Sequence record: OM386654.1
Direction: 5' to 3' (one strand)
From: Escherichia phage vB_EcoM_ESCO9
DNA: 64,000 nucleotides
Shown here piece after piece: positions 5,266 to 60,715 of the stretch. Below the pieces are notes generated by a model that saw only the letters and a list, made by a program, of their open reading frames with translations, searched no databases and was not told the DNA's origin. Within the stretch, counting starts at the first letter, position 1, and each line of letters starts with the position of its first letter. The position numbers and the translations under genes were made by a program.

Positions 5266-5292
5266 CATCTCTTTGATTTTAAAGGAGTTTTT

Positions 5293-5889
5293 ATGCTTAC
5301 CGTATATGGTGAAGGTATTAATGATTTGGAAGGCGAGAGTACGCTACCTGGTAGTAAGAAACTAACGCCGCATTATATGAAATGGATGGCTATGTTGGGG
5401 AGGTGTTACTCCCCTTGTCAACAAGAACGTGATCCTTGTTATAATGGGGTGACGGTTTGTGAAGAATGGAAACTGTTCTCCAATTTCTACTCTTGGTTGC
5501 AAACTTGGGATAACTGGGAAAACTTAGAACTTGATAAAGATATTATAGGAGGGAGAGTTTACTCTCCCGATACCTGTCTTTTAGTAACAGGAGATCTTAA
5601 CAAGTTCTTAGCTTATAGAGTAAGTAAAAGATCTCATGGGACTATGGTAGGATGTAGTTACGAAAAAGATCGTAAAAAGTATAAAGCCCATATTCAACGT
5701 GATGGACGTGTTATAACACTGGGACGTTTTAATACTGAAATTGAAGCGCATCTTTGTTGGTTGAAGGCTAAGGCAGAACAGCTTACAAAATTCTTTGAAA
5801 CTGAAGATGAAAGAGTTGTTCCACATCTTAAAGCACTATATAATGAAATGCTTGAGCATGTAGAACAACACAAAGAGTGGACACGATAG
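5293..5889 (+). CDS. AP2-domain DNA-binding protein, possible homing-endonuclease-like gene
   Basis: C-terminal YKAHIQRDGRVITLGRFNTEIEAHLCW resembles the AP2 DNA-binding domain found in phage homing endonucleases; no catalytic motif identified by eye. Confidence 0.4.
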   Translation: MLTVYGEGINDLEGESTLPGSKKLTPHYMKWMAMLGRCYSPCQQERDPCYNGVTVCEEWKLFSNFYSWLQTWDNWENLELDKDIIGGRVYSPDTCLLVTGDLNKFLAYRVSKRSHGTMVGCSYEKDRKKYKAHIQRDGRVITLGRFNTEIEAHLCWLKAKAEQLTKFFETEDERVVPHLKALYNEMLEHVEQHKEWTR

Positions 5890-5897
5890 GAGAAAAT

Positions 5898-6491
5898 ATG
5901 AATATTGAAGATCAAAAAGTACGAGCTTTAGAAGTATTACGTATGTGCCAACTGGTAGATCCGTTTGCAATTGTAGCTGGCGGCGCTGTACGTGACTGGC
6001 GATTAGAGAAACCTGCGCAAGATATTGACATTTACTTGCGTATGCCTAACCACAATACACTCGTGCTAGTAGAGAAGTTTTTGATGTTGGGTGTTGGTGC
6101 ACGTAATGTTAAACAACTTACTAAGCAAACAGAACACACTTATGCCGAACTACCACATTTGAAATGGGTATTTGAAGCATACTATAAAGACCTTAAGTTT
6201 AACTTTATGATCATGGAAGAAGGTGTACGCAGTGAAATCGTATGGAACTTTGATGTAGCTATTTGCCTGTGTTACTGGGATGGTCAAAATTATGTATATC
6301 ATCCAGATTTTGAATTTGCACTGAAAACTAATATTTGTACTATTAATCACCGCTACACAGGTAAAGAAGCACACGTCCGTAAAATGGCAGAACGTTTCCC
6401 TATGTTCCGCTTTGTAAAAGACGTTTTCATTCCCAAAGAACCAGAAGTACGTACACTGGATTCATTTAACAACGAAGAATTTAAGATTTAA
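5898..6491 (+). CDS. hypothetical protein
   Basis: ATG at 5898 preceded by AGGAG; track start at 5877 has no RBS and overlaps the upstream gene. Confidence 0.5.
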   Translation: MNIEDQKVRALEVLRMCQLVDPFAIVAGGAVRDWRLEKPAQDIDIYLRMPNHNTLVLVEKFLMLGVGARNVKQLTKQTEHTYAELPHLKWVFEAYYKDLKFNFMIMEEGVRSEIVWNFDVAICLCYWDGQNYVYHPDFEFALKTNICTINHRYTGKEAHVRKMAERFPMFRFVKDVFIPKEPEVRTLDSFNNEEFKI

Positions 6492-9113: not shown

Positions 9114-10999
9114 TATGTAACATTGACTGTAAATCTGACAAGAGGTGATAACACGTCATTATCAGCATCATAGTGTGCAACATCAAACACTGTTGTACCT
9201 GCTGCAAATCCATATTGTTCAACCTGATCTGCATAAGTAAATGTGTAAGTGTTAGTATCCAGGGTTTGTTCTGTAAGAATTGCTGCTGTGAGGACGTTTA
9301 CATTTCGGAAGTAATGTTTAGTATATCCTGCTGGTTCCCAAGAGACAATTGCATCTTGGTTAGCTTGTCTTACAGCGGCTCCTCCTGTTGGAACAGACAT
9401 ATCAACCCAAACAGGTGACGCTGATGTTAAGTCTGTACCGTCTGCTGCCGATTTAGCAAGTTTTGTAGCTGCTGTTTGATATACAGAAGAAATATAATGG
9501 ATACGACCATCAATACCTTCTTCATAAACATAACCACTGTAACGTTCAGCACCATCTACCCAAGAACCAATTATAACATCATCACGTGCTGTAGAGATGG
9601 TTCTTTGTACATTTCTGTACTTCTGCCAATCCACACCATTAACTTCTACACCATATAAATAAGAACGTCCTAGGATCTGCCAAACAATTTTTGCTTGAGA
9701 AGCAGGAACTATTGTACGCATCTTATCAAAGATAGCTATCGTAGCATCATGGTAACGTGTAGTGTTACTGTACCTACCTGCAACAGTCGAAGATGCTGAT
9801 ACAGCATCATTTTCACCTTGTCCCCAAATAATTGCTTTAACCTTACTTGCATAAGGTGTGACTTTAGTGATAAAGTTAGTTAAGCATGGCCCATCTGCTG
9901 TGTTATCCAGATCATACCAGTAGTTGTCTGGTGTTCCTGTTCCGGCTTTATCATCTGCATATTTATCTGCTGCTGATGATCCAGAAGCTGCATTTAACGG
10001 AAGAACTTCAGCATTTGCTAAACCACGTTGCGTAGCATATGCATTACGGGCTGTTGTGCTACTCATTGCTGCTTTATTTGCACCAGATAGTTCTGTAAAG
10101 TGTGCATTTACGTTATCTTGTCCAGCAAAGACAATAACTTCTTTAATGAATGAATCATCTGTAGCTATTGAGCTATTAAAGATAACGGCTGCTGCTTTGG
10201 TGCTCTTAACGCTAATTTTAAGGTATGTTGGAGCAAACCCATAAAGAGGAATAGAGTCAGAGATATCAAAGTAGGCGTAAGTATTTGTGGTTGTTGTAGT
10301 CCACTGGACACTATTATCACTTAAATCTAATACTTCTACAGTATAAGTATCACCATCTAGCGGATCAGTTACATCCCAAGCAACACGAACGTCTCCATAA
10401 CTGTTTGCCACGGCTGTTACATTAGAAATAACAGGAATAGCATTAACACCTAAATAAGAACTATCAGAGGCCACAACTGTTCCTTGATACGTTGCAGTAC
10501 AACCTATACGGCAATTACCATCTTTAAGAGCAGTTATTAATCCTGTAGGGCTTACAGTAGCTACTTCTGGATCTGTTGTGGTGTACGTAATTACCATGTC
10601 TGGAAGATCTTTAGCACCTTCTGGACTGATTGTAGCAACCAACTGTTGAGTAGTGCCTACATCCATAGCTGATAGACTTTCAGTGTACACGCTTAATTCT
10701 GAAGCATAACCACCAGATTGATCAGTTAAGACAGCACCTAAATTATTTTTAGCTGTCATTATTGCATCAAAACCACCTTCGGCAACAAACTCCATCATAC
10801 CACTATTATCTATAACCATTTTGGTATTATCTGAAGATGAAAAAGCTATATCAAATAACGCACCATCTTCCGGTGAAACTGTGTATGTCAGTTGCTTTTT
10901 ACTACCAACTATTGCAATACCAATAGAGGAAGTGGTTATAGATGTAGCTGTTACTACTGAAGCTGATGTTGTTGACATAAATAAAGGAATAGGATACAT
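9113..10999 (-). CDS. virion/tail-fibre protein with Ig-like (Big_2) domains and a SASA/SGNH-type carbohydrate esterase-like domain
   Basis: 628 aa; Big_2-like repeats (ATISPEGAKD..., VATVSPTGLITALKDGNCRI); esterase-like blocks IVFAGQDNVNAHF and IIWGQGENDA. Confidence 0.5.
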   Translation of the reverse strand: MYPIPLFMSTTSASVVTATSITTSSIGIAIVGSKKQLTYTVSPEDGALFDIAFSSSDNTKMVIDNSGMMEFVAEGGFDAIMTAKNNLGAVLTDQSGGYASELSVYTESLSAMDVGTTQQLVATISPEGAKDLPDMVITYTTTDPEVATVSPTGLITALKDGNCRIGCTATYQGTVVASDSSYLGVNAIPVISNVTAVANSYGDVRVAWDVTDPLDGDTYTVEVLDLSDNSVQWTTTTTNTYAYFDISDSIPLYGFAPTYLKISVKSTKAAAVIFNSSIATDDSFIKEVIVFAGQDNVNAHFTELSGANKAAMSSTTARNAYATQRGLANAEVLPLNAASGSSAADKYADDKAGTGTPDNYWYDLDNTADGPCLTNFITKVTPYASKVKAIIWGQGENDAVSASSTVAGRYSNTTRYHDATIAIFDKMRTIVPASQAKIVWQILGRSYLYGVEVNGVDWQKYRNVQRTISTARDDVIIGSWVDGAERYSGYVYEEGIDGRIHYISSVYQTAATKLAKSAADGTDLTSASPVWVDMSVPTGGAAVRQANQDAIVSWEPAGYTKHYFRNVNVLTAAILTEQTLDTNTYTFTYADQVEQYGFAAGTTVFDVAHYDADNDVLSPLVRFTVNVT

Positions 11000-11038: not shown

Positions 11039-13000
11039 TTATGTGCGTTTAGCAACAATAGCATCTACGTAATCGCCAACACCACAATATGTTAGTTGTA
11101 GTATTGTTACTCCGTTAGGATCTGTATTAATATCACTAGAACCAATTACTTTGTAAGATGGATCTAAAGTAACAGTACGACCTCCAGTGGCATCTTGGAT
11201 AAGATAAACTATTGCAGAGAATGGTTTAGGTTTTGTGCTATCTTCGACACCAGGCCATGCTTTTATAGTAGAGTTACCAGTAAGATTCAACACATTCATG
11301 TTATGTGTTCCTGGAGGTGTCCAGTCACCTGTAACAGAGTTGTTGGTGTATGCTGTAACCTCTATAAAATTAGTTGTTACTTTTGTTGGAACTATATCTT
11401 GACCATCTACAGAACTAGTGAGTTCTTCCCATGCTCCATCTTTACGAGCATAGATCTTACCGTCACTAGGTGCATCTGTGATGCTAGGCAGTGTACCTTG
11501 AGAAGTCCAGGCAGTTGCAGATGTTTTTAAGAACACCTCACCAGTGGAGATATTAAAGGCATAATCACCTTGTTTACCATCACTAGAAATTGGATCTGTT
11601 GTTTTAACAATCCAAGTTGCACCGTCTGTACCGTTAGTACCAGCGTCACCTTTTTCACCCTTATCACCTTTCAAACTACCCATATCTACATATTCAGCAG
11701 TTTGAGTTTGTTCATCATAGGTGTAAATGTAAAGATGACCTGTATCTTCCGTCAGATAAGCATCACCGTAATTGGCTGTAGGAGGAAGTGCACTTGCAGA
11801 CGCAACGTGTCCTTTTGCAGTGATTGGAGTACCAGCTAAACGACCAACATTTGTCCACTGTGTGGCTCCTTGCAACCAAACCCAAAGTTCATTATTGATC
11901 AGATAACCATCACCATCTTCTCCAGTTTGTGGTAGTTCAGAAGTGTCAGTCAGAATATCAATAATTGTCAACCCTGCACCAGTTGGCCCCGTCAAGCCTT
12001 GTATACCCTGCTCACCTTGATCACCCTTGTCTCCCTTATCACCTTTTTCTCCTTTCAGAGAGGCAATATATTCATCAATAGTACCAACGTTACCAGCATT
12101 TAACCAGACTTGATAAGCAGAATCACCAGTGTTACCCTTATCTCCTTTGTCGCCTTTATCTCCTTTTGGCCCCACTATAGCGCCCATATTGATCCATTCT
12201 ACACCGTTTGACACGTATAGATATGTACCAATACTCCATGCTTGAGATGTGTTTCCAGGAGATGCAGAAGGAAGATCTGAAACAGAATTAGCTGCACCTT
12301 GGTAATCAAAACCATTAGCATTATTACCTGGTACACCTTGTGGCCCCTCTGGGCCAGGTTCCCCTTTATCACCTTTAATTGAAGCAAGATAATCTAGTTC
12401 TGTACCTTCATTTCCTGCTGCAAGCCATACTTCATAAGCAGATTTACCTTCTGGCCCCTGTGAGTTTACTTTTCTCCAAGCAGTGCCATCCCAAGCATAC
12501 ATATTCTCGCCTACAATCCATGCGTCACCTGCATTGTTTCCAGTTGTAGGTAATTGGTTGGTATTAGACAGCGTTCCTAATAGCTTTAATGGAGCACCTG
12601 GATCGCCTTTTAAAGAAGCCAACCACTCTGCCTCAGTACCTTGGAAACCATTGTCTACGGCAATCTGGTAAGCTGATTTACCAGCTTCTGGAATGGACTC
12701 TCTAAGATCTTCAATTTCAGCTTCAATAGCATCTAATTCTGATTCTATTTGAGCAATGTCATCTGCATTACCCACATTTTTCCAAGCTGTATCTGAAATC
12801 CCTCCAGTAGATGTAGGAGTAGAGTTAGCAGGTACAACTTTAGGTAGAGAACCTTTCCACTGATAGTAGTTACCGTCAGTTTCAAAGAGCAATGCTTCAC
12901 GAGCATCTCTTAAGGTAAAACCACTTGCAAAACTTCTACGCTTTCTATAGCGAGACTCTACCATGTCTGCAATGGCACTATTTGGACGTGTTAAAATCAC
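11039..13000 (-). CDS. tail fibre protein with collagen-like Gly-X-Y repeats
   Basis: 653 aa; GDKGDKGDKGNTGDS and KGEKGDKGDKGDQGEQGIQGLTGPTGAG; recurring SAYQ(V/I)W...E(Y/W)LASLKG motif. Confidence 0.6.
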   Translation of the reverse strand: MILTRPNSAIADMVESRYRKRRSFASGFTLRDAREALLFETDGNYYQWKGSLPKVVPANSTPTSTGGISDTAWKNVGNADDIAQIESELDAIEAEIEDLRESIPEAGKSAYQIAVDNGFQGTEAEWLASLKGDPGAPLKLLGTLSNTNQLPTTGNNAGDAWIVGENMYAWDGTAWRKVNSQGPEGKSAYEVWLAAGNEGTELDYLASIKGDKGEPGPEGPQGVPGNNANGFDYQGAANSVSDLPSASPGNTSQAWSIGTYLYVSNGVEWINMGAIVGPKGDKGDKGDKGNTGDSAYQVWLNAGNVGTIDEYIASLKGEKGDKGDKGDQGEQGIQGLTGPTGAGLTIIDILTDTSELPQTGEDGDGYLINNELWVWLQGATQWTNVGRLAGTPITAKGHVASASALPPTANYGDAYLTEDTGHLYIYTYDEQTQTAEYVDMGSLKGDKGEKGDAGTNGTDGATWIVKTTDPISSDGKQGDYAFNISTGEVFLKTSATAWTSQGTLPSITDAPSDGKIYARKDGAWEELTSSVDGQDIVPTKVTTNFIEVTAYTNNSVTGDWTPPGTHNMNVLNLTGNSTIKAWPGVEDSTKPKPFSAIVYLIQDATGGRTVTLDPSYKVIGSSDINTDPNGVTILQLTYCGVGDYVDAIVAKRT

Positions 13001-47889: not shown

Positions 47890-47979
47890 TGGAGGAAGAT
47901 AATGGAGTCGAACCATCACCGTATCACTACAATGGGCCAGGGTTCAAACCTGGTTGCGCACCGCTGCGCCCTACCTTCC
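47890..47979 (-). tRNA. tRNA-Ser (anticodon TGA), long variable arm
   Basis: 90 nt; anticodon arm CCAGG-UUUGAAC-CCUGG; T-arm GAUGG-UUCGACU-CCAUU; acceptor GGAAGGU/AUCUUCC with one G.U; CCA encoded. Confidence 0.65.
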
Positions 47980-47989
47980 CGTTATCATA

Positions 47990-48024
47990 CTTTAAATCTA
48001 ACATAAAACTATCTTGCTTGTCAA
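47990..48024 (-). promoter_or_regulatory. sigma70-like promoter for a tRNA transcription unit (-35 TTGACA, 17 nt, -10 TTAGAT)
   Basis: Minus-strand TTGACA at 48019-48024; -10 at 47996-48001; tRNA-Ser 5' end about 17 nt downstream. Confidence 0.4.
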
Positions 48025-48042
48025 GTAGTTTTTAAAACTTTT

Positions 48043-48124
48043 TGGCCGGGGTGACAGGATTCGAACCTGCATACTCCAATTACTCGGTTAACGCCTGATT
48101 AGAAGTCAGGTGAGATACACCCCG
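48043..48124 (-). tRNA. atypical tRNA-like (anticodon arm consistent with Arg-TCT; no recognisable D-arm)
   Basis: Acceptor CGGGGUG/CACCCCG, T-arm GCAGG-UUCGAAU-CCUGU, CCA, hairpin CCUGA-CUUCUAA-UCAGG; only 7 nt between acceptor and that hairpin, 23 nt after it. Confidence 0.4.
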
Positions 48125-48197
48125 TTTTTATAATGACTATAACAAAAAACTAAGTAAATGTCAAGATATTTTTTACTAAAATTACTATTTAAATTGA

Positions 48198-48303
48198 AGC
48201 CTAGTTATGGAATCGAACCATATTTCGTATTTAGTTAGACAAAGCGGTCTAACATATTTTTCAGGCTTTGATGGCCTCGGAATTACCAAATACCCTACTA
48301 GGC
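48198..48303 (-). tRNA. atypical 106-nt tRNA-like element; candidate anticodon loop CAUCAAA (UCA) in my fold
   Basis: Perfect 7-bp acceptor GCCUAGU/ACUAGGC; T-arm UAUGG-UUCGAUU-CCAUA; D-region GGUAUU-UGGU-AAUUCC; hairpin AGGC-CAUCAAA-GCCU; extra perfect 7-bp hairpin GUUAGAC-CGCUUU-GUCUAAC; no CCA encoded. Confidence 0.4.
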
Positions 48304-48305
48304 GT

Positions 48306-48391
48306 TGGTGCAAGTGGAGGGATTCGAACCCTCAATCATTTAAGCGTTGCGTTTTAAGCACAATGTGTATCACCAATTCCACCACACTTGC
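48306..48391 (-). tRNA. tRNA-Leu (anticodon TAA), long variable arm
   Basis: 86 nt; D-stem GUG/CAC; anticodon arm UUGUG-CUUAAAA-CGCAA; T-arm GAGGG-UUCGAAU-CCCUC; CCA encoded. Confidence 0.7.
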
Positions 48392-48422
48392 GTATAGGAG
48401 ATGCATAGCACCTCCTTTTAAA

Positions 48423-48498
48423 TGGTGGTTCCCCAGGGTTACAATCCCTGCCCTCGACACTTATGAGGTGTGCGCTCTCGTCAGTGAGCTATGGAACC
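48423..48498 (-). tRNA. tRNA-Met (anticodon CAT), second copy, non-canonical T-loop
   Basis: Acceptor GGUUCCA/GGGAACC; D-arm GCUC/GAGC; anticodon loop CUCAUAA; T-arm CAGGG-AUUGUAA-CCCUG; CCA encoded. Confidence 0.55.
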
Positions 48499-49244: not shown

Positions 49245-50978
49245 TTAGTCAACCTGGATGGTTCCCATAGTACGAAGAACCTCTACATCAACACGGTTAC
49301 GGATATCTGTAAATGTTTCATCACGTCCTTCTACTTGTGGTGTAATAACCGTACCATCCCTGAAGATAACTTTTAACTCATTGTCTTCATCTTGGATATC
49401 TTTAAAAGAAAGATTATCCACAAGAGAAAGTTTACCATTTGTATCCTTAACAACCTTAATAAAACCTTTTGCAGAGCGTTTACCAGGATCAGTTTTAGGC
49501 TCCTTACTTACCAAAATTTCGTGTTCACCGATGATACTACCTGTTGCTTTAACAGCAAAACCAAAAGTATCTCGTGTATTGAACTGATAAGTATAACTAC
49601 CAACACCAAATACAATATTGGAAGCTGCAAAACCTTTCTTCTTCAGTCGGCGTAAGATCTCGTGTTCTCGTTCAACAGTAATAGAATCACCATAAATCAT
49701 ACCGATGTGCTGATCAAGAACCTTGTAGCCTTTTCGGTTGATAGTACCACCAAACACTTCCCAAAGGATTTGAATAGAACCTACTGCTTCACAATAAGGA
49801 ATCTCATAAGTTTCATCAATACAATCAGCAACACTGCAATCCTGAAGAACATTGTAATACTTATTAACATCAGCCAAATGAACTACTTCAGTGGCTGTAG
49901 CAATACCATTATTTAAAAGGTCTTCATAGTTATCAAAAGATTCAACATTGTATCCTGCAACAACTTTAACCGGATCTCCTGAATCTGGACGAATAACAAG
50001 ACGACCATTTCGTGACATAATGGAATCTTTCAACTCTACCAGAATGCGAGTCAAGACAGCCCAGTAGTCATAAGAATCTGCTACATATGAACAAAAACCT
50101 TCTGGAACAATTTCTTCAATATAGCGGCGAAGAAACTCTTTCTCTGCTACATAACGAAGCCCATCAACATCATCTTTAAGATGTGGGAAATGTTTCTTCA
50201 GACCTTCAACAATAGCTCCAATGTTAGTCGTTGCTACTGAATGTTCTGTTGCCGGAATAGAACCTGCAACAAACTGATCATAATCAATACCATAATAATC
50301 ATGCACAGTCTCAATAGCCAGAATGTTATCTGTTCCTGTGAAAGATGCCAAATGAGCGATACCACTCTTATAACCATCTTCGATATTACTTAAACCACGT
50401 AGGCTAAAATCATGACACTGGAAGTTAACGTGATCAATATTATCACACGTTGCCATCGCATATGCCATAGCGATACGCTTATACTGAAAAGCTGCTGTGG
50501 CATTAGTCATTGTCTTCCAAGTTTCATCTGACAATAGTGTTTCCACATAGTTAGTTAACCAAAAGAATTTTTCTAAAGTATTATGCACAGTAAACACAGG
50601 AACACCAATAGGACACAAAACACCTTCTGGCAGAGATCGAACTTCCAGCGGAAGATAACCTAAATCGTGCAATTCTCCCCAACATTCAGCAGAAGGAGCA
50701 GAAGCACCTAATGCATTCTTAGACATACGATAAAATTTATTTACTGCTGCACTACGAGACATTTTAAAGAAGCTGTCCCACATAGTTACAAGGGCATCGG
50801 TGACTGCTCGACGAATACCTAAAACAATTACACCACGTGCTTCACGATCTGCATAGTGTGCAAAGTTTTTATCATTACGAGGAGTTAAATTAGAGAAAAT
50901 GAGTTTTGTATTTTGGTTGTACATCTGCTTGTGACCAGGTTTATACCAATCAGTAGCAAAAGGTGCAAAAATATTCAT
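49245..50978 (-). CDS. nicotinamide phosphoribosyltransferase family protein (NAMPT/NadV-like; Namat-type activity not excluded)
   Basis: 577 aa; blocks recalled from NAMPT: FATDWYKPGHKQMY, LPEGVLCPIGVPVFTVHNT...FWLTNYVETLL, HDFSLRGLS, RPDSGDP. Confidence 0.85.
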   Translation of the reverse strand: MNIFAPFATDWYKPGHKQMYNQNTKLIFSNLTPRNDKNFAHYADREARGVIVLGIRRAVTDALVTMWDSFFKMSRSAAVNKFYRMSKNALGASAPSAECWGELHDLGYLPLEVRSLPEGVLCPIGVPVFTVHNTLEKFFWLTNYVETLLSDETWKTMTNATAAFQYKRIAMAYAMATCDNIDHVNFQCHDFSLRGLSNIEDGYKSGIAHLASFTGTDNILAIETVHDYYGIDYDQFVAGSIPATEHSVATTNIGAIVEGLKKHFPHLKDDVDGLRYVAEKEFLRRYIEEIVPEGFCSYVADSYDYWAVLTRILVELKDSIMSRNGRLVIRPDSGDPVKVVAGYNVESFDNYEDLLNNGIATATEVVHLADVNKYYNVLQDCSVADCIDETYEIPYCEAVGSIQILWEVFGGTINRKGYKVLDQHIGMIYGDSITVEREHEILRRLKKKGFAASNIVFGVGSYTYQFNTRDTFGFAVKATGSIIGEHEILVSKEPKTDPGKRSAKGFIKVVKDTNGKLSLVDNLSFKDIQDEDNELKVIFRDGTVITPQVEGRDETFTDIRNRVDVEVLRTMGTIQVD

Positions 50979-51049: not shown

Positions 51050-51943
51050 TTAAAAATTCCACACGTATGGAGATACAATTTGTTGTTGCAAATCTGACTG
51101 ATTCTTAACAAGAACACCGGAATCTTCTTGGATGTTATCTTCCCACACATTAAGAGAATGAATGCAGTCAAAGTGCTCACTTAACTCTTTAAGACCTTTA
51201 GAAAAGATACCGTGTGTAACATATAACTCAATCTTACCTGCGTTACGAGCACGTAGCACTTTAGCCAATTCAATAAAAGTTCTACCGCCGTCACAGATAT
51301 CATCTACGATCATCAGGTTACGCTTATTGAAATCCTGTACAGAAATGTCTGTACGAACAATAGCACCTGTTGCAGTATCTCTAACCTTCTCTGCACAGAA
51401 CACATCTAAAGACATTTTCTTAGATAATTTAAATATTTTCTTAAGAGCACCACCATCAGGACTAACAAGAGCAAAATTCTCCATACGTAACTTCCACTTT
51501 AAAGTTTCGTAAGCAATCTCTTCTTGAGGTATTACACAGAGTCTGTCAAACACTGCTGGAGTAACATCACTATGTGGATCAGCAACGATAACACGTGAGA
51601 AATTTAATGAATTAATTATAGAAGCAAAGGCTTTAACTCCGAATGCTTCCCCAGGCTCACACACTCTGTCTTGTCGTGCATACGGCACATACAACATGAG
51701 TAAATCAACACAATATGGTTTATGATATAACATATTGTCCAATGCATTCTTAGTCATAACCAAAGTCATCAAGTCTTTAGCAGATCTTACTTCTAAAGAG
51801 AGTAAGATTCTGTCTGTAGCATGATTGAAACCTGATAGATTCGTGTCTAGTTGAACATGTTGTTCTCCACCAGAGAATGTAAAGACTTTAACGTCTACAT
51901 CAGTAACATAACAGTCAACACCATGTAGAATACTAACTTTCAT
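51050..51943 (-). CDS. ribose-phosphate pyrophosphokinase (PRPP synthetase)-like protein
   Basis: 297 aa; Prs-like motifs YARQDR, VSPDGG and IVDDICDGGRT; RBS AAGGAG. Confidence 0.85.
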   Translation of the reverse strand: MKVSILHGVDCYVTDVDVKVFTFSGGEQHVQLDTNLSGFNHATDRILLSLEVRSAKDLMTLVMTKNALDNMLYHKPYCVDLLMLYVPYARQDRVCEPGEAFGVKAFASIINSLNFSRVIVADPHSDVTPAVFDRLCVIPQEEIAYETLKWKLRMENFALVSPDGGALKKIFKLSKKMSLDVFCAEKVRDTATGAIVRTDISVQDFNKRNLMIVDDICDGGRTFIELAKVLRARNAGKIELYVTHGIFSKGLKELSEHFDCIHSLNVWEDNIQEDSGVLVKNQSDLQQQIVSPYVWNF

Positions 51944-53785: not shown

Positions 53786-53979
53786 TGTTTCTTATTTATT
53801 CAGGTAAAGCCAAATACATGCAAGGTGTAAAGCGTGTAGAAGTAGCAGATACTGTAACTATAGGAAAATCCTTTATTCTTTATTTGTTTTATATCAATGG
53901 AGAAAGATTTGCTGTTTCTAAGAAGTTGGTAGATAATGGTAAAACTTGGAAAGAAGAGAAACAGGAAGGGGGTAGATAG
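53785..53979 (+). CDS. hypothetical protein (64 aa)
   Basis: ORF track; TAATG overlap. Confidence 0.4.
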   Translation: MFLIYSGKAKYMQGVKRVEVADTVTIGKSFILYLFYINGERFAVSKKLVDNGKTWKEEKQEGGR

Positions 53980-54320
53980 TGGCTAAAATTCTTTGGTTAG
54001 ACGATTTAAGAGATCCTAAAGATTATGGTTATGAGGATGCCATTTGGTTAAAATCTTTTGAGGATTGGTTATCTTTTGTTTCAGATGAAGATAATTTCAA
54101 TAATATCTCAGAGATACACTTCGATAATGATCTTGGAGAAGATCAAGAAGGATATCATGCGTTCTTAGACGTAGAATGTATGTTGTACGCGGGTGAATGG
54201 GATGCTCTTAAAACTATCTATGTTCATACATCAAATCCTTCTGCTGCTGGTAAATATATGTTAGCTAAGGAAAATTTTATTTCATCCTATGGTATTGAAA
54301 TTAAACGTGTTAACTATTAA
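53979..54320 (+). CDS. hypothetical acidic protein (113 aa)
   Basis: GTG start overlapping upstream stop. Confidence 0.45.
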   Translation: MAKILWLDDLRDPKDYGYEDAIWLKSFEDWLSFVSDEDNFNNISEIHFDNDLGEDQEGYHAFLDVECMLYAGEWDALKTIYVHTSNPSAAGKYMLAKENFISSYGIEIKRVNY

Positions 54321-54329
54321 GTAGGTATT

Positions 54330-54479
54330 ATGCATTACTCAGTTTGGTCAGAGCAAGAAGAGGATGAAGGGCATTTTATCTATAGAGAGGAAGAAAATTG
54401 GAGCGATACGAGTAATGATCTTTTACTTCCTGATTACAGTTTTTTCGCTGATAGACTAAAAGAGTATGGAGAAAATTGA
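54330..54479 (+). CDS. small hypothetical protein (49 aa)
   Basis: ATG ORF found by eye (MHYSVWSEQEEDEGHF...); below the track's length cut-off. Confidence 0.3.
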   Translation: MHYSVWSEQEEDEGHFIYREEENWSDTSNDLLLPDYSFFADRLKEYGEN

Positions 54480-54838
54480 TGTGCGCTACTAATCAACATG
54501 ATATTTGTTACCAACCTCTCACTTGGATTGGTGAGGATCACTATGCTCAACGTGTTATAGTCTGCGCTGCGAACAAGTATATTCTTAACAATGGCGAAGA
54601 GTTAATTATTCCTTGTGTTAGGCATGCAAATCCTGTACTATCTGCACAACTTAATGTTTTAAAAGATGCAGGATTGATCGATAAACTGTTTTGCTTACCT
54701 GATAATCAAGGGTTTATTGATCAGTATTATAACTGGTGGAGTCGCAAAGATGCTTATGTCATTGCAGATAACGCCAAACAAATTAACTACGAAAGAAATG
54801 GTCACAACAGTGAACTATTCAGCGAGGGATTATACTAA
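54476..54838 (+). CDS. hypothetical protein (120 aa)
   Basis: ORF track; ATGA overlap on both sides. Confidence 0.45.
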   Translation: MMCATNQHDICYQPLTWIGEDHYAQRVIVCAANKYILNNGEELIIPCVRHANPVLSAQLNVLKDAGLIDKLFCLPDNQGFIDQYYNWWSRKDAYVIADNAKQINYERNGHNSELFSEGLY

Positions 54839-55389
54839 TGTTTATTACAAGTGATTTGCATTTTATGCACAAACGTATCCGAGAGTTTGCTCCTGAATAT
54901 CGCCCGTGGGAAGATATGGAGCATATGACAGAAGCACTGATCGAAGCATGGAATAAATGTGCCAAAACACCAGGAGTAAAGATGTACCATCTTGGGGACT
55001 TCTGTTTCGGGACTGAAGAAGATACCCGTAAGATTGCTTCCCGTCTCCAAGGGGATATTACTTACTGTGTTGGGAACCATGATTACAGCAAACACAGAAA
55101 AGTGCTTGCAGAATATGGTGAGGTTGTGTATTATGACGAAGTGAAATATCAGAAACTGTTCTTCGTCTTAAGTCATTACCCTATGGCTGCCTGGAATAAA
55201 CAAGGGCGTGGATCAATCATGCTACACGGGCACTCTCACGGATCATTCCCTGATCATTTGTATGGGAAAATGTTGGATGTTGGTTGGGACGCACACGGAA
55301 AAATCTTGCATTTTGACGAAATCATCTCTATTATGGATAAACGTGATATTGTTGTTGTAGACCATCATAAGATAATCAAAGGAGATTAA
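54838..55389 (+). CDS. calcineurin-like metallophosphoesterase
   Basis: Motifs DLHFMH, LGDFCFG, GNHDY, HGHSHG. Confidence 0.7.
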   Translation: MFITSDLHFMHKRIREFAPEYRPWEDMEHMTEALIEAWNKCAKTPGVKMYHLGDFCFGTEEDTRKIASRLQGDITYCVGNHDYSKHRKVLAEYGEVVYYDEVKYQKLFFVLSHYPMAAWNKQGRGSIMLHGHSHGSFPDHLYGKMLDVGWDAHGKILHFDEIISIMDKRDIVVVDHHKIIKGD

Positions 55390-55390
55390 G

Positions 55391-56323
55391 GTGGCTAAGT
55401 TCAATTGTGATGACCTGATTGCAAAAGGTTTAGTGCATAAAAAAGAAGTTAAATCTGGAGAGTATGCTGGTCTTGCTGTACTTAAATACAAAAACAATGT
55501 ATTCTGGGATAACTTGTGGAACGTTGACAAACGACTTCTAGATTGTCGTGGGTTGGTTGTTGACTCAGAAGACAATGTTGTTATTTGGCCTTTTACTAAA
55601 ATCTTTAATCGTTTTGAGAATGGTACAGATCTTCCAGCAGACGAACTTGTAGATGCTGTCCGTAAAGTAAACGGTTTTATGGCATCTGTAGGTGTGTACA
55701 AAGGGAAACTTGTTGTATCAACAACAGGGAGCCTAGAATCAGATTTTGCAATTATGGCAAAGAACCGTATTGTTTCCGAGTGTGACGACATAGAGTATTT
55801 CATTAAGTGGACAGAAAGTGCAAAAGCAACTTTTCTTTTTGAAATCTGTGATCCTTCTGATCCACATATTGTCGAAGAAGAACCAGGCGCATACTTAATT
55901 GGAGCAAGAATTCAAAATCTTGATGGGACAAGTTTCATGTTACCTGAAGGTGTTCTTGATGGGATTGCATCTATTACAAAATTTAAACGTCCTGAAGTTT
56001 ATCCGATGATTAAATTTTCAGATGTTGTTGAAATGTCTAAACATTGTAGACACGAAGGCTTTGTTGTTCGTGAAACAAACTATCCGTTTAACTTACTCTT
56101 AAAGATTAAGTCACCATACTATCTTGCTAAGAAGTTCCTTATGCGTGGTGGCAATAAGAAGTGGGATATGATTTGGGACAACCCAAACAATGCTAAACAA
56201 ATTGTTGACGAAGAATATTATACTTTGTTAGAATGGCTTCGAAATAACTTTACGAAGGTTCAATGGGCTGCTCTAGATCCACAAGAGCGACGTAAAGAAA
56301 TAGAAAACTTCTTTGGAGGCTAA
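55391..56323 (+). CDS. ATP-dependent nucleic acid ligase (nucleotidyltransferase superfamily), candidate RNA ligase
   Basis: GTG start; motif I VRKVNGF (KxNG), motif III-like FLFEICDP, motif IV EGFVVRE, motif V LLLKIKSP. Confidence 0.65.
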   Translation: MAKFNCDDLIAKGLVHKKEVKSGEYAGLAVLKYKNNVFWDNLWNVDKRLLDCRGLVVDSEDNVVIWPFTKIFNRFENGTDLPADELVDAVRKVNGFMASVGVYKGKLVVSTTGSLESDFAIMAKNRIVSECDDIEYFIKWTESAKATFLFEICDPSDPHIVEEEPGAYLIGARIQNLDGTSFMLPEGVLDGIASITKFKRPEVYPMIKFSDVVEMSKHCRHEGFVVRETNYPFNLLLKIKSPYYLAKKFLMRGGNKKWDMIWDNPNNAKQIVDEEYYTLLEWLRNNFTKVQWAALDPQERRKEIENFFGG

Positions 56324-56728
56324 ATGAAACAACTTATCATTTTACGTGGTGTTTCAGGTGCAGGTAAATCTACAGTAGCAGAAATTATCTCTGAAAATCA
56401 TTGGCCTATTTGTGAGGCAGATCAATACCACTACACTGAAGATGGTGTGTATGAGTGGAAACAAGAGAATATCCATAAAGCACACCAATGGTGTCGTGTC
56501 AAAGTAGAAAAATATATGCAGTATGGTGTTGAAAAGATTATTGTTTCTAATACCTCTACTACAGAAAAAGAACTTAAACCTTATTTAACTCTTGCTGAAG
56601 AGTTTGGTTATCAAGTTATCTCCTTAGTTGTTGAAAATAGGCACGGTAACGACTCAATTCATGAGGTTCCACAACATATTCGTGATCAGCAAGAGAAACG
56701 TCTTCGCAGTTCACTTAAGCTACAATAA
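56324..56728 (+). CDS. P-loop kinase, candidate polynucleotide 5'-kinase
   Basis: 134 aa; Walker A ILRGVSGAGKST at the N-terminus; directly follows the ligase-like gene. Confidence 0.6.
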   Translation: MKQLIILRGVSGAGKSTVAEIISENHWPICEADQYHYTEDGVYEWKQENIHKAHQWCRVKVEKYMQYGVEKIIVSNTSTTEKELKPYLTLAEEFGYQVISLVVENRHGNDSIHEVPQHIRDQQEKRLRSSLKLQ

Positions 56729-57286: not shown

Positions 57287-57483
57287 GGGTAACTATGACA
57301 TTTATTGAAGAACTAACGAGAATTGCAAACGCACCTAACAGTAGCGAAGATCCTTACTTTATGGTGGATGATTACACTGGTGGTAATATTGATTATGCCT
57401 ATGAACTAGGCAGACTACACGGTGAAATTGAAATGGCTAAATGGGTTCTTTCTCAACTGGAGGTTAAAGATGAAACAAACTAA
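57280..57483 (+). CDS. hypothetical protein (67 aa)
   Basis: ORF track. Confidence 0.4.
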   Translation: MVRVTMTFIEELTRIANAPNSSEDPYFMVDDYTGGNIDYAYELGRLHGEIEMAKWVLSQLEVKDETN

Positions 57484-58585
57484 TCCTACATTGTATGGTA
57501 AAACTTCTACAGGTAAAATTAAACAGTGGTCAGTCTATACAGAAGGTAGTGTTGTAACTGTTGCTCATGGTCAATTAGGTGGAAAGATTACTAGCAAATC
57601 TTATATAGCAGAACCTAAAAATATTGGTCGCTCAAATGAAACAACAGCAGAAGAACAAGCTGAAATAGAAGCTCTTGCCAAATGGACAAAACAACTTAAG
57701 AATGGGTACTATAAAACAAAAGAGGAAGCTGAAAACCATGTTCCTTCCACACCCATGAAATGTCAGGATTATAAAGATTATGCTGATCGTGTTTTGTTCC
57801 CAGGTTATGCACAGTATAAATTGAATGGTCTACGTTCAATGATTAACATGCAAGGTGAATGCTTATCTAAAGCTGGGGAAGTATATAAACTTCCACCTCA
57901 CTGGAAAGAAATTCCAACCTTCATTAAAGAAGTAGTTGGTCATCCTCTTGACGGTGAAGTTTTTGCTGGTTTGGGTGTCCTTAGCCTTCAACAAATTAAT
58001 AGTGCGTGGAAAAAGCACAATGCTAACACACCGCTTCTTAAATATTATGTATACGATGTTCCTGTGGCATCTGTACCATTTGAGAAGAGAGTTCAAGTTT
58101 TGGCTGCTCTGAAAGAAGTTGTTGAAGATAAAGGTTTAGATGAACTTATTTGTGTAGTACATACAGAGTACATTGAAAACCAAGAACAGTTTGATGCTTT
58201 CTATGCAAAAGCTCTACGAGAGAAAGCGGAAGGTGTGGTGTATCGTAACGCACAAGGTGTTTACGAGTTTGATAAACGTTCTTATGATGTTATTAAACGT
58301 AAACCACGTCAGACGCTTGAAGTTAAAGTGGTAAGTGCAAAACGTGATAAAAATGGTGACGGGGTATTGACAGGCGAGATGGAAAATGGTAAAGTAGTCG
58401 AATTCCTGATGCGTAAGGATTCAGATGAAACCATTAACTATCGTAAAGAAGAAAATGCTTTGACACTTATTGGTCAATTTGTTGAAATAGAGTACGAAGA
58501 ATTTTCAGACGAAGGTATTCCTACCAAGCCTGTTGGGGTACGTGTACGTAATATGATTCCAGGTACTTGGGAACCAGCAGAGTAA
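57470..58585 (+). CDS. ATP-dependent DNA ligase
   Basis: ATG at 57470 preceded by GGAGG; motif I YKLNGLR, motif III PLDGEVFAG, motif IV EGVVYRN, motif V VIKRKP; C-terminal extension consistent with an OB domain. Confidence 0.75.
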   Translation: MKQTNPTLYGKTSTGKIKQWSVYTEGSVVTVAHGQLGGKITSKSYIAEPKNIGRSNETTAEEQAEIEALAKWTKQLKNGYYKTKEEAENHVPSTPMKCQDYKDYADRVLFPGYAQYKLNGLRSMINMQGECLSKAGEVYKLPPHWKEIPTFIKEVVGHPLDGEVFAGLGVLSLQQINSAWKKHNANTPLLKYYVYDVPVASVPFEKRVQVLAALKEVVEDKGLDELICVVHTEYIENQEQFDAFYAKALREKAEGVVYRNAQGVYEFDKRSYDVIKRKPRQTLEVKVVSAKRDKNGDGVLTGEMENGKVVEFLMRKDSDETINYRKEENALTLIGQFVEIEYEEFSDEGIPTKPVGVRVRNMIPGTWEPAE

Positions 58586-58782: not shown

Positions 58783-59505
58783 ATGATCGAGAATTTTTTC
58801 AAACAAGTAAAAGTGGACAATAGCTTCTTTATCAAAGCTGCCGATCAAATTGTTGCTTGGAATGCTAAGGCACGCGGTGGAGTAACTCCAGAATTTACTC
58901 AAGAGATGTTTGAAGCTCAACTTTCTTTTGTACGAGAAGAACTTAAAGAGTTTCAAGCAGCAGCACAGGAAAATGATCACGTTGAATTACTTGATGCAGC
59001 AGCAGATATTTTTGTGGTAGCATCCTATCTGGCATTTATGTTCTTTGGTAAAGAAGGTGTTGATAAAGCTCTGGAAATGCCGACAGGCGATGTTCTGGCA
59101 GAAAACATTTACGATGTTATCATTGAATTTGATAAAATGGTAGAAAATGACTTGCAATTTGCCTTAATGTCTCTTACACTTACACGTATGGCACGAGATA
59201 CTTTGGTGCGTTCTGTCTATAACGAGAAGAAGGTTATGCGTGAAGTGTTGAATAGCAATGAGTCCAAGTATCCTACCAAGAAGCAACTCCTGGCTATTTG
59301 GGAAACTAAGGATATTATTGAAGCTCTTGAAAAAGAGTGCGATGCTATCGAGATGCGAAGCAAAGATCGTGCAGAAGGTTCTTATACTGGGGTACATGCT
59401 GTATATAACGAAGTTCAAAAGGTGTACGTATTCTTTGATGACAAAGGTAAAATTATGAAACCATCTACCTTTGTTAAACCTAATATCGCAGCAATCATTG
59501 CTTAA
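58783..59505 (+). CDS. hypothetical protein, possibly MazG-like nucleotide pyrophosphohydrolase
   Basis: EE/ExxD-type acidic helix pairs (VREELKEF ... ELLDAAADIF); weak. Confidence 0.3.
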   Translation: MIENFFKQVKVDNSFFIKAADQIVAWNAKARGGVTPEFTQEMFEAQLSFVREELKEFQAAAQENDHVELLDAAADIFVVASYLAFMFFGKEGVDKALEMPTGDVLAENIYDVIIEFDKMVENDLQFALMSLTLTRMARDTLVRSVYNEKKVMREVLNSNESKYPTKKQLLAIWETKDIIEALEKECDAIEMRSKDRAEGSYTGVHAVYNEVQKVYVFFDDKGKIMKPSTFVKPNIAAIIA

Positions 59506-59830: not shown

Positions 59831-60715
59831 ATGTTTGCTAAAAATTTCAAATCTTGCGTAACCCTGATTTCTGGTGATGGTCTGTCTATTTCCGCACTGA
59901 ACACAGTAACAGACAAACCGCTGGATTTTGTTGTGGCACAGGGTCAACAAGCACATACCATTGGTCTTGTTCGTTTTGAAGATGATGGTTCCTATGTAAA
60001 AGTGTTCTCTGGTTTAGAGGTTATTAAAGTAGGGCAATCTGTTAAGAAAGTTAACAAGAAAAAAGTTAAACGCATTCTTAATGAAAAACTCCAAGAGATG
60101 GAACAAGAGTTTATTGCTGCAAATCCTACTAAAGAATTCTTCTTGGATAAAGAAAGTAAAAAAGCAATTGAGGCTGATATCGTGTTTTCTCTGCTCCCAG
60201 AGACAGAGGCAGATGATTTCTATAACTATGTTGTTGTAGACACTGAGAACAGTATTACCTACGTTCTTAATGGTACTAAGAAAATTAGTGAAGATATTGC
60301 TGTGTTTCTTCGTGAGGTGTTGGGTACTTTCCCAGTTCTGCCGTTTAGTGTACACGAAGAAGCCATTATTAAAGGTTTTGATACCATCTTAGAAGAACAT
60401 GAGGCTGAACGACTGACCCTTGGTAATTATATTAAACTTGAAGATTCTGAAGGTGTGGTTGTATGGAGTAAAGAATCCCTTTATGAATCTCGTGCAGTAG
60501 AACTTATGGAAGATGGTAAGCACGTTGTTGCCATTGGCCTGGAATATGACGGTTTCGTTAACTTTATTGTTGATAAAGAATTTAAGTTGAGTGGTATTAA
60601 ATTCCCTAAATACTTTAACGATGAAGAAGGATCTTTTGAAGCATCTGTCCTTCTGTGCTTTAATGAAATCCGTGGTATTATGCAAGACCTTATTAAGTCA
60701 ACTATTCAAAAATAA
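59831..60715 (+). CDS. hypothetical protein (294 aa)
   Basis: ORF track; RBS GGAGAA. Confidence 0.5.
   Translation: MFAKNFKSCVTLISGDGLSISALNTVTDKPLDFVVAQGQQAHTIGLVRFEDDGSYVKVFSGLEVIKVGQSVKKVNKKKVKRILNEKLQEMEQEFIAANPTKEFFLDKESKKAIEADIVFSLLPETEADDFYNYVVVDTENSITYVLNGTKKISEDIAVFLREVLGTFPVLPFSVHEEAIIKGFDTILEEHEAERLTLGNYIKLEDSEGVVVWSKESLYESRAVELMEDGKHVVAIGLEYDGFVNFIVDKEFKLSGIKFPKYFNDEEGSFEASVLLCFNEIRGIMQDLIKSTIQK

Follow-up and report, generated by a model that had tools for sequence, protein, structure and literature searches.

Do three adjacent genes of a coliphage encode a complete system for mending broken RNA, and if they do, how is it built? The question is raised by a 64,000-nt window (the whole stretch of DNA analysed here; sequence record OM386654.1) of Escherichia phage vB_EcoM_ESCO9, a phi92-like E. 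coli myophage (Justusliebigvirus), in which genes for a metallophosphoesterase, a ligase and a small P-loop kinase follow one another. An initial annotation, made from the sequence without database searches, had read the trio as a candidate RNA healing-and-sealing cassette that looked like a counter-defence against host anticodon nucleases. Based on comparisons of sequences and structure models, we consider that the three genes probably form a split RNA healing-and-sealing system, composed of a predicted 3'-end healing enzyme, a predicted 5'-OH healing enzyme and a predicted sealing enzyme.

Gene layout of the cassette

The three open reading frames (ORFs) lie consecutively on the plus strand, exactly where they had been placed: the metallophosphoesterase, of an Aquifex aq_1665-like subfamily, at 54838..55389 (183 aa, ATG start), the Rnl1-family ATP-dependent RNA ligase at 55391..56323 (310 aa, GTG start, which is consistent with the N-termini of its homologues) and the small P-loop kinase of the polynucleotide 5'-kinase clade at 56324..56728 (134 aa, ATG start). 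The 4.7-kb region round them is 98% identical to that of phages Eryne, alia and phi92, and the ligase protein is 99.4% identical to its counterpart in the BASEL phage PaulScherrer. All the motifs first quoted for the three proteins are found in the translations, and the hidden Markov model (HMM) searches proposed as a check matched all three, well beyond chance, to the phosphoesterase, ligase and polynucleotide kinase (Pnk) families, respectively. Scans with NCBIfam and PADLOC gave nothing informative past generic P-loop matches.

The genes had also been called translationally coupled. They do abut and have ribosome-binding sites: at the first junction the stop codon TAA is followed by one base (g) and the GTG of the ligase, upstream of which lies the ribosome-binding site AAAGGAG, while at the second junction the stop codon TAA stands directly against the ATG of the kinase, with the Shine-Dalgarno sequence GGAGG upstream. 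However, such coupling is not special to the trio, since the preceding ORF (54479..54838) overlaps the start of the metallophosphoesterase gene (TAATG, 54836-54840), and the series of genes that overlap or abut extends back via 53979 and further upstream. Thus, coupling alone is weak evidence, and the real support comes from the linkage kept in distant genomes. In addition, a promoter and terminator scan of the 48-60 kb region gave counts not above those of shuffled sequence, so no operon boundaries are claimed from it.

Linkage of the three genes across phages

The strongest part of the case is comparative. A total of 80 viral loci carrying relatives of the ligase, from 97% down to 40% identity, were fetched from IMG/VR and searched by iterated HMMs seeded from the window proteins; the metallophosphoesterase was found in 65 of them and the kinase in 72, while the other immediate neighbours in the window were found in 1-3. 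In the wider set of 84 phage loci (numbered with the prefix L where single loci are named below), a metallophosphoesterase lies within 6 kb of the ligase in 69 loci and a kinase in 76. The loci were also counted by lineage, defined as clusters at 55% ligase identity: the metallophosphoesterase is within 6 kb of the ligase in 24 of the 26 lineages, the kinase in 23 and both in 21. The gene order is not fixed, being metallophosphoesterase-ligase-kinase in 36 loci and kinase-ligase-metallophosphoesterase in 21, and divergent layouts occur in the rV5/FV3-like phages. Furthermore, de novo clustering of all ORFs in the neighbourhoods gave the same ranking, with the metallophosphoesterase and the kinase as the top families, and the trio is present in annotated isolates of unrelated groups, namely Pseudomonas phage PAK_P1 (Pakpunavirus), E. 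coli phage FV3 (Vequintavirus) and the T5-like Vibrio phage Chester.

The ligase family as such was detected by tBLASTn in 691 sequenced phage records, and among the genera that carry it are some already employed or put forward in therapy, with phi92-like, rV5-like and Phapecoctavirus coliphages, the Pseudomonas genus Pakpunavirus, and phages of Klebsiella, Acinetobacter and Vibrio. Four records named 'Campylobacter phage A150/A145/A110a/A116' (MG065639, MG065645, MG065689 and MG065676), whose host is given as Campylobacter jejuni, are 96-97% identical to the phi92-like or rV5-like region of E. coli phages; the host assignment of these unannotated records looks doubtful.

The ligase belongs to the Rnl1 clade

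The ligase carries the motifs K92-V-N-G95, E222-G-F-V-V-R-E and K238-I-K240, and the nucleotidyltransferase motifs I (KxxG), III (acidic), IV (EG) and V (KxK) are all present. It matches the Pfam family RNA_lig_T4_1 over profile positions 2-227 of 227 (6.6e-14, 52.7 bits; cut-off 28.3 bits) and the PHROG family phrog_562 at 5e-68. Searched as a single sequence against PDB, it gave chance-level matches only, but a profile built from 25 sequences gave the T4 Rnl1 entries 2c5u and 9do4 as the sole significant matches (E = 7e-10). In this alignment R53, K70, F72, K92, E151, E222-G223 and K238/K240 correspond to T4 R54, K75, F77, K99, E159, E227-G228 and K240/K242, and the elements upstream of motif I, LDCRG (with R53) and K70-I-F72, correspond to LECRG and K-F-F of T4. 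The aligned residues are invariant in 79 of the 79 sequences from the 84 loci, with F72 being F or Y. Mutational analysis of T4 Rnl1 is said to have found R54, K75 and F77 essential.

The AlphaFold2 model of the ligase (predicted local distance difference test score, pLDDT, 90.4) points in the same direction. The top 10 Foldseek matches are all T4 Rnl1 or fungal Trl1 ligase domains (E ~1e-12; template modelling (TM) score 0.59-0.67), followed by archaeal Rnl3 (1e-9), Rnl2 (1e-6) and also Naegleria Rnl, with DNA ligases at 4e-5 or weaker. Pfam, profile and fold comparisons thus agree that the protein is an Rnl1-clade RNA ligase, neither a DNA ligase nor a capping enzyme, and it groups with T4 Rnl1 and fungal Trl1; a grouping with DNA ligases or capping enzymes had been named as an outcome that would speak against the cassette.

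The label given to the family in GenBank and PHROG, 'RNA ligase and tail fiber protein attachment catalyst', brings up another explanation, in which the ligase would be kept mainly for a non-catalytic attachment of tail fibres like that of T4 gp63, its neighbours being incidental. Besides the label, the N-terminal domain of T4 rnlA scored as essential in the part used here of the HIDEN-SEQ preprint (10.1101/2025.11.20.689424). But the label is inherited from T4, all the catalytic residues are invariant in the 79 sequences, and fusions with a kinase occur in many genomes, including cyanobacterial chromosomes, where there are no tail fibres. Moreover, according to the same part of that preprint, the genes bas54_0209-0211 of phage Bas54 (RNA ligase, polynucleotide kinase and putative phosphoesterase) as well as bas54_0208 carry abundant transposon insertions on E. 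coli K-12. The coordinates of Bas54 coincide with those of phage MaxBurger, whose ligase is 47% identical to that of the window. Such tolerance gives no positive phenotype; it fits a conditional function and argues against a structural role of the gp63 type, as the protein is not needed for infectious virions. The tail-fibre explanation is almost certainly wrong, and it was rejected as an annotation carried over from T4.

The kinase is a divergent member of the Pnk clade

The kinase has the P-loop G9-VSGAGKST17, in which K15, S/T16 and T17 are invariant, and it matches AAA_33 (1.5e-10), phrog_2071 (4e-58) and phrog_505, annotated as 'polynucleotide kinase' (1.4e-9). In PDB, a profile built from 27 sequences placed at the top the Pnk of Clostridium thermocellum (CthPnk, 1.6e-5), a Mucorales kinase (9d8a), Capnocytophaga Pnkp1 (9e-5) and T4 Pnk (2.4e-4), and thymidylate and deoxynucleoside kinases were at chance level (E >= 0.13). 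The P-loop/Asp region also matches nicotinamide riboside kinase weakly, over residues 2-38 only (E = 0.005). In the AlphaFold2 model (pLDDT 90.3), the top 22 Foldseek matches are all T4 Pnk or CthPnk, with TM scores of 0.73-0.77. D33, invariant in 68 of the 68 sequences, aligns to the general-base Asp of Pnk (D38 in CthPnk, D35 in T4), whose role has been described (PMC3902929). T77 (= T80) is conserved, R106, which corresponds to the nucleobase-stacking R116 of CthPnk, is R in 48 of 69 kinases, and R8 just before the P-loop, Y43 and H113 are invariant in the family.

A deoxynucleoside monophosphate kinase, which would have spoken against the cassette, was considered and rejected: the match to phrog_139 spans the P-loop only (residues 1-35), and the first matches of both profile and model are the polynucleotide kinases of Clostridium thermocellum, Capnocytophaga and T4. 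No HAD domain turned up in the cassette proteins or in their annotated recurrent neighbours, and the kinase has P-loop kinase matches only. By fold and context, the protein is a Pnk-clade enzyme, which fails two defining features of the active site (see below) and is treated here as a divergent, minimal subtype. As a separate observation, its best PADLOC match is PDLC01900, the P-loop module of a CARF-PD-(D/E)XK-AAA protein (E = 1.5e-6, residues 2-109), so a related kinase module may exist in CARF-associated host proteins.

The metallophosphoesterase looks active

The metallophosphoesterase shows the motifs D6-x-H8, G53-D54, G79-N80-H81-D82 and H130-G-H132-S-H134, and all five motifs for the binuclear metal site (DxH, GD, GNH[D/E], a single H at H113, and GHxH) are present. 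It matches the Pfam family Metallophos (7e-6, 27 bits; cut-off 21.5 bits) and phrog_547 (3e-55). D6, H8, H11, R22, G53, D54, G79, N80, H81, H113, H132, H134 and D151 are invariant in 63-64 of the 64 unique relatives. When the family profile was compared with PDB, 1xm7 (Aquifex aq_1665, function unknown) was the sole strong solved relative (6e-23); neither lambda phosphatase (1g5b) nor the phosphatase domain of Clostridium thermocellum Pnkp (CthPnkp; 4j6o) appeared at E <= 1. A lambda-type protein phosphatase, which had been named as an outcome that would speak against the cassette, was rejected on this result. A weak match to PdeM, a DNA-ligase-associated phosphoesterase, is far below the cut-off (E = 0.004). 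The protein looks active, judging from its motifs, and its part in 3'-end healing, as a 2',3'-cyclic phosphodiesterase and/or a 3'-phosphatase, is predicted solely from the gene context.

Natural fusions join the predicted activities

In 11 phage loci the kinase (about residues 15-138) and the ligase (about residues 150-426) are encoded in one ORF. Bacterial relatives, searched with the ligase alignment, extend this pattern to cells. In Cardiobacteriaceae, a 493-aa kinase-ligase fusion is followed by a metallophosphoesterase of the phage type (L087, L095, L107 and L116). In Leptolyngbyaceae, a chromosomal protein of 712 aa has AAA_33, Metallophos and RNA_lig_T4_1 domains in series, for example at 3768..5906 of locus L106 from Leptolyngbya sp. 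PCC 7375. Its kinase domain matches the CthPnkp kinase (3.5e-11), its phosphoesterase domain matches the CthPnkp phosphatase 4j6o (2.5e-24), and the cyanobacterial ligase domain is 31-35% identical to the phage ligase. This indicates that the ligase clade of the window is, in cells, joined covalently to a genuine Pnkp healing module. Between the phage metallophosphoesterase and the CthPnkp-like domain of the cyanobacteria, hhalign gives a probability of 20%, and the two subfamilies look like a case of non-orthologous displacement inside one superfamily.

About 25 other cyanobacterial loci (L088-L119) hold a similar protein, which, like the fusions of Cardiobacteriaceae, is apparently uncharacterised. 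Among the phages, a clade with a kinase-ligase fusion (L053, L055 and L064) has a phage tmRNA 4-5 kb downstream of it (12189..12591, 10399..10801 and 11208..11604, respectively) and a Rv2179c-like 3'-5' exoribonuclease nearby, and no metallophosphoesterase was found within the flank.

Neighbouring genes and the readings they suggest

The DNA ligase recognised downstream in the initial annotation (57470..58585) is real (DNA_ligase_A_M 3e-11, phrog_114 1e-74), and it is not peculiar to the window: 45 of the 84 loci and 11 of the 26 lineages have an ATP-dependent DNA ligase no more than 6 kb away from the Rnl1-type ligase, and in L044 and L045 the DNA ligase is located between the kinase and the RNA ligase. 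The cassette could, on this ground, be a general processor of nucleic acid ends that works also or mainly on DNA, the kinase and the metallophosphoesterase healing 5'-OH/3'-phosphate nicks for the DNA ligase and RNA-DNA or single-stranded ends being left to the Rnl1-type enzyme. T4 Pnkp and CthPnk do act on DNA as well as RNA ends, CthPnk having been crystallised with DNA oligonucleotides (PMC3902929), and the weak PdeM match of the metallophosphoesterase fits as well. However, the fusions of the kinase are always with an Rnl1-type ligase and never with a DNA ligase, 15 of the 26 lineages have the cassette and no DNA ligase nearby, and the remaining recurrent neighbours are RNA-related. Furthermore, DNA ligase belongs to the core genes of replication, and its nearness may just reflect a nucleotide-metabolism module. 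A general module that serves DNA also or mainly is unlikely.

Further downstream lie genes for a MazG-like pyrophosphohydrolase (58783..59505, plus strand; PRA-PH 3e-7) and an RdgC-like protein (59831..60715, plus strand; 2e-19), and a MazG-like gene is near the cassette in 12 of the 80 loci.

On the other side, 6.3 kb upstream of the cassette, a minus-strand array of 15 tRNAs (45460..48498) bears out the nearby tRNA genes reported at first. Among the tRNAs are tRNA-Lys(UUU), Tyr, Asn, Thr, Gln and two Met, and the array has gaps of about 300-430 bp (46175-46607, 46681-47084 and 47979-48306), in some of which small hypothetical ORFs are annotated in phage Eryne. With such an array at hand, and with tRNA arrays or tmRNA near the cassette in some other loci, the trio might serve housekeeping, for example by maturing, splicing or circularising tRNAs or other transcripts of the phage, and the enzymology would then be identical to that of repair. 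Nevertheless, tRNA genes are missing from the 6 kb around the cassette in most loci, ARAGORN detected no intron-containing tRNA in the array of the window, the homologues in Bas54 are non-essential on K-12, and the partners that recur beside the cassette serve counter-defence (NARP1, Macro) and not RNA processing. We regard housekeeping as decidedly unlikely.

The NARP1 genes are the most frequent of these partners. In the window, Namat and Adps are found at 49245..50978 and 51050..51943, both on the minus strand, and at the N-terminus both are identical to the entries for PaulScherrer in the tables of Osterman et al. Among the 26 lineages, 13 have NARP1 genes (Adps, Namat) no more than 6 kb away from the ligase, and the arrangements number at least 8, with the genes inside the cassette in L034, L044 and L045, and right after the kinase in the same operon in PAK_P1, L023 and L066. 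In the portions used here, the NARP1 papers and the survey of Iyer et al. 2021 carry no mention of this linkage. Read most simply, the linkage is a co-selected island whose functions make good what is destroyed by abortive-infection systems.

Two stronger readings of the linkage were weighed. In the first, the cassette itself would belong to an extended NAD+/ADP-ribose salvage, in which the ligase puts AMP on a nucleotide 5'-phosphate such as that of nicotinamide mononucleotide, the kinase phosphorylates a nucleoside and the metallophosphoesterase trims phosphorylated ADP-ribose derivatives for NARP1. The recurrence and the variety of the arrangements speak for it, as do the weak match of the kinase to nicotinamide riboside kinase and the extra genes, including one for a phosphatase, carried by NARP1 operons (Osterman et al., 10.64898/2026.01.28.702374). 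But the validated NARP1 phosphatase (Adpp) is a Macro-domain protein and not a metallophosphoesterase (10.64898/2026.01.28.702374), so the identification of our metallophosphoesterase with that enzyme was rejected; half of the lineages have the cassette and no NARP1; the full-length best matches of the kinase and the ligase are polynucleotide enzymes; and the cellular fusions tie the ligase clade to a bona fide Pnkp module. A salvage role of this kind is highly improbable. In the second reading, the cassette would be functionally coupled to NARP1 in a 'damage-reversal island', the two arms of which share intermediates. In one version, the Rnl1/Trl1-like ligase may seal ends bearing a 2'-phosphate, which host KptA strips off using NAD+, cREC or Macro proteins may process the resulting cyclic or phosphorylated ADP-ribose, and NARP1 would then rebuild NAD+; in a milder variant, the minimal kinase may be a new Pnk subtype with another mode of acceptor binding. 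No homologue of Tpt1/KptA was found in the 84 phage loci or in the window, which gives no support to such coupling or to a Trl1-style 2'-phosphate route. We consider functional coupling very unlikely.

Two genes upstream of the cassette stands an ORF (53979..54320, plus strand, 113 aa) for a cREC (cyclic-phosphate-processing receiver-like) domain protein (Pfam cREC_REC PF20274, 2.3e-14, 54.3 bits; cut-off 27 bits). Its residues D8, D9, D12, H47, D49, D51, H83, T/S84, S85, N86 and K92 are invariant in all 12 sequences, and the acidic pocket of the receiver type is kept. Its position varies: in Phapecoctavirus-like loci (L003-L007 and L012) it lies between the ligase and the kinase, and the rV5/FV3-like loci (L015 and L083) have it immediately behind the ligase. 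In Iyer et al. 2021 (PMC7824862) an operonic link between cREC and RNA ligase is reported, and an opening of cyclic phosphates by cREC, an activity that is predicted only, is proposed. We regard cREC as probably a lineage-restricted accessory of the cassette, found in 2 of the 26 lineages. In the rV5/FV3-like phages, a gene for a Sir2-like NAD-dependent deacetylase comes right after the ligase and cREC (4271..5032 of L083 in FV3; bas54_0207), a further neighbour with a connection to NAD.

Between cREC and the metallophosphoesterase, the small ORF at 54479..54838 (plus strand, 119 aa) matches phrog_839 (1.3e-46; no known function), with a precomputed Pfam assignment to PF26092. It has 19 homologous clusters, all of close relatives, one of which is named 'putative anti-restriction nuclease'. 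A homologue is near the ligase in 2 of the 26 lineages, one of them the distant L071, where it is just upstream of the ligase (5178..5456). At this low frequency the ORF finds no support as a fourth core part, and its membership of the cassette is uncertain.

After NARP1, genes for Macro- and HD-domain proteins are the next most frequent neighbours. Recurrent neighbours connected with RNA ends or translation rescue are a second ligase of the Rnl2 type, the Rv2179c-like exoribonuclease, tRNA arrays and tmRNA. The Rnl2-type ligase, with an N-terminal PHA02142 OB-fold, lies a few kb from the cassette in 4 lineages (10834..11886 in L039 and 8530..9609 in L042; also in L043, L047, L050 and L073).

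Proposed mechanism and the evidence on both sides

Taking the trio as an RNA healing-and-sealing system, the following course can be proposed. A host RNase, typically a metal-independent anticodon nuclease or another abortive-infection RNase, would cut RNA and leave a 2',3'-cyclic phosphate along with a 5'-OH at the break. The metallophosphoesterase would open and remove the cyclic phosphate, or remove the 3'-phosphate, to give a 3'-OH, and cREC may assist the cyclic-phosphate step in the phi92-like group. The small Pnk-like kinase would transfer a phosphate from NTP to the 5'-OH, and the Rnl1-type ligase, self-adenylylated at K92, would pass AMP to the 5'-phosphate and seal the ends. Translation would thereby be restored and the phage would escape abortive infection. 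The families and folds, the intact catalytic residues, the conserved linkage and the natural fusions are observed; we infer that the substrate is RNA, tRNA in particular, that the steps follow this order and that the metallophosphoesterase and cREC have this chemistry; by analogy with T4, the system would act as a counter-defence against anticodon nucleases. A need for end healing in natural E. coli strains is indicated by phage Bas37, whose T4-type PseT orthologue was conditionally required on a clinical isolate in the part used here of the HIDEN-SEQ preprint (10.1101/2025.11.20.689424).

Several observations weigh against this reading. In the kinase, the acceptor-clamping Arg that follows three residues after the general-base Asp, essential in both CthPnk (R41) and T4 (R38) (PMC3902929), is replaced by H36, and the position is occupied in 69 family members by H (24), F (24), L (10), W (6), M (3) and A (1), never by R. 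The lid arginines that contact the gamma-phosphate (R120/R123 in CthPnk, R126 in T4) are not kept either, the aligned positions being variable (N/D/K/G) except for the invariant H113. With both the clamp and the lid arginines absent, the phosphoacceptor could differ from that of canonical Pnk. The ligase has only about 65 residues, all helical (helices from 242 to 307), past motif V, compared with about 120 aa in T4 Rnl1, and the profile alignment with PDB ends at T4 residue 250; in T4 Rnl1 the C-terminal domain confers tRNA specificity. The one close solved relative of the metallophosphoesterase has no known function, and its subfamily differs from those of CthPnkp and lambda phosphatase. Regarding the neighbourhood, tRNA genes are near the cassette in just 14 of the 54 loci scanned, and the recurrence of DNA ligase (11/26) and NARP1 (13/26) leaves room for DNA-end or NAD-linked roles. 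Finally, a literature search found no biochemical or genetic test of the cassette and no activity or phenotype for any member, and in the part used here of the HIDEN-SEQ supplement (10.1101/2025.11.20.689424) the Bas54 cassette was not depleted when K-12 was compared with a clinical isolate (log2 fold change +0.3 to +0.4).

Comparison with known systems

One close parallel is the pair of T4 Pnkp (PseT) and Rnl1 (RnlA), which reverses the damage done by PrrC to tRNA-Lys. Both systems are phage-borne and share the three activities, which are predicted here; the ligases are of the same family, with the aligned catalytic residues kept, the kinases have the same fold and clade, and both systems are dispensable on laboratory hosts. 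However, the T4 kinase is fused to a HAD-type (DxDxT) phosphatase, whereas here a stand-alone kinase of 134 aa is accompanied by an unrelated metallophosphoesterase; the cassette kinase has no equivalents of T4 R38 and R126, the C-terminal domain of the ligase is about half the T4 length, and the T4 genes are non-adjacent while all three abut here.

Clostridium thermocellum Pnkp resembles the cassette in combining a P-loop Pnk, which is the best PDB match of our kinase, with a binuclear metallophosphoesterase and a covalent nucleotidyltransferase ligase. It differs in being a single bacterial polypeptide with Hen1 as a partner, while the cassette consists of three viral genes with an Rnl1-type ligase and a metallophosphoesterase of another subfamily. 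No Hen1 or other methyltransferase was noticed among the annotated recurrent neighbour families, though no search aimed at Hen1 was made. The 712-aa proteins of Leptolyngbyaceae likewise have the three activities in one chain, the ligase domain being the phage ligase's relative in cells, but they are chromosomal, and their kinase and phosphoesterase domains are CthPnkp-like rather than of the phage subfamilies. In Capnocytophaga gingivalis, the ligase is of a different clade from the cassette ligase. The Pnkp1-Rnl-Hen1 complex of this species (PDB 4xrp) has its ligase separate from the healing enzymes, as here, and its Pnkp1 kinase is among the matches of our kinase, but kinase and phosphoesterase are in one protein there and Hen1 is included. 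Fungal and plant Trl1 share the heal-and-seal logic and a Pnk-clade kinase, and their ligase domain is as near in fold as T4 Rnl1; in contrast, the cyclic phosphodiesterase of Trl1 is of the 2H type, and the 2'-phosphate that stays behind is removed by Tpt1 with NAD+. No 2H domain was found among the annotated neighbours of the cassette.

Parts of this picture have precedents. GenBank relatives are already labelled 'putative RNA ligase/RNA repair', 'phosphoesterase' and 'polynucleotide kinase', and for jumbo phages the general combination of Rnl1/Rnl2, polynucleotide kinases and phosphoesterases, the last at times calcineurin-like, was described by Iyer et al. 2021 (PMC7824862), who cite Burroughs and Aravind 2016. 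These surveys are general, the one of 2021 being confined to jumbo phages, and in the portions used here (PMC7824862) they do not contain the group of phages of about 145 kb, the divergent kinase site, the aq_1665-like metallophosphoesterase, the fusions or the NARP1 linkage. Judged by its sequences, the cassette shares the logic of T4 Pnkp/Rnl1 and bacterial Pnkp in a new build, with a minimal kinase having a non-canonical acceptor site, an aq_1665-like metallophosphoesterase, a short Rnl1 and an optional cREC. The cREC and NARP1 genes, the absence of the canonical arginine from the kinase and the place of the metallophosphoesterase outside the CthPnkp subfamily did not figure in the initial annotation.

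Implications for phage biology

Abortive infection by RNA cleavage is common, as exemplified by PrrC, RloC, PARIS, the retron/PtuAB tRNases and Cas13, and the sole well-studied repair answer of phages is T4 Pnkp with Rnl1. If the proposal is true, the cassette would be a differently built and widespread answer. It would also give a function to the uncharacterised aq_1665-like phosphoesterase family and define a polynucleotide kinase of minimal size whose acceptor site is non-canonical, and some host-range differences among therapeutic phages may find an explanation in it. Furthermore, the linkage with NARP1 would suggest that the restoration of tRNA or other RNA and that of NAD+ are bundled in one locus, which could aid the finding of counter-defence genes.

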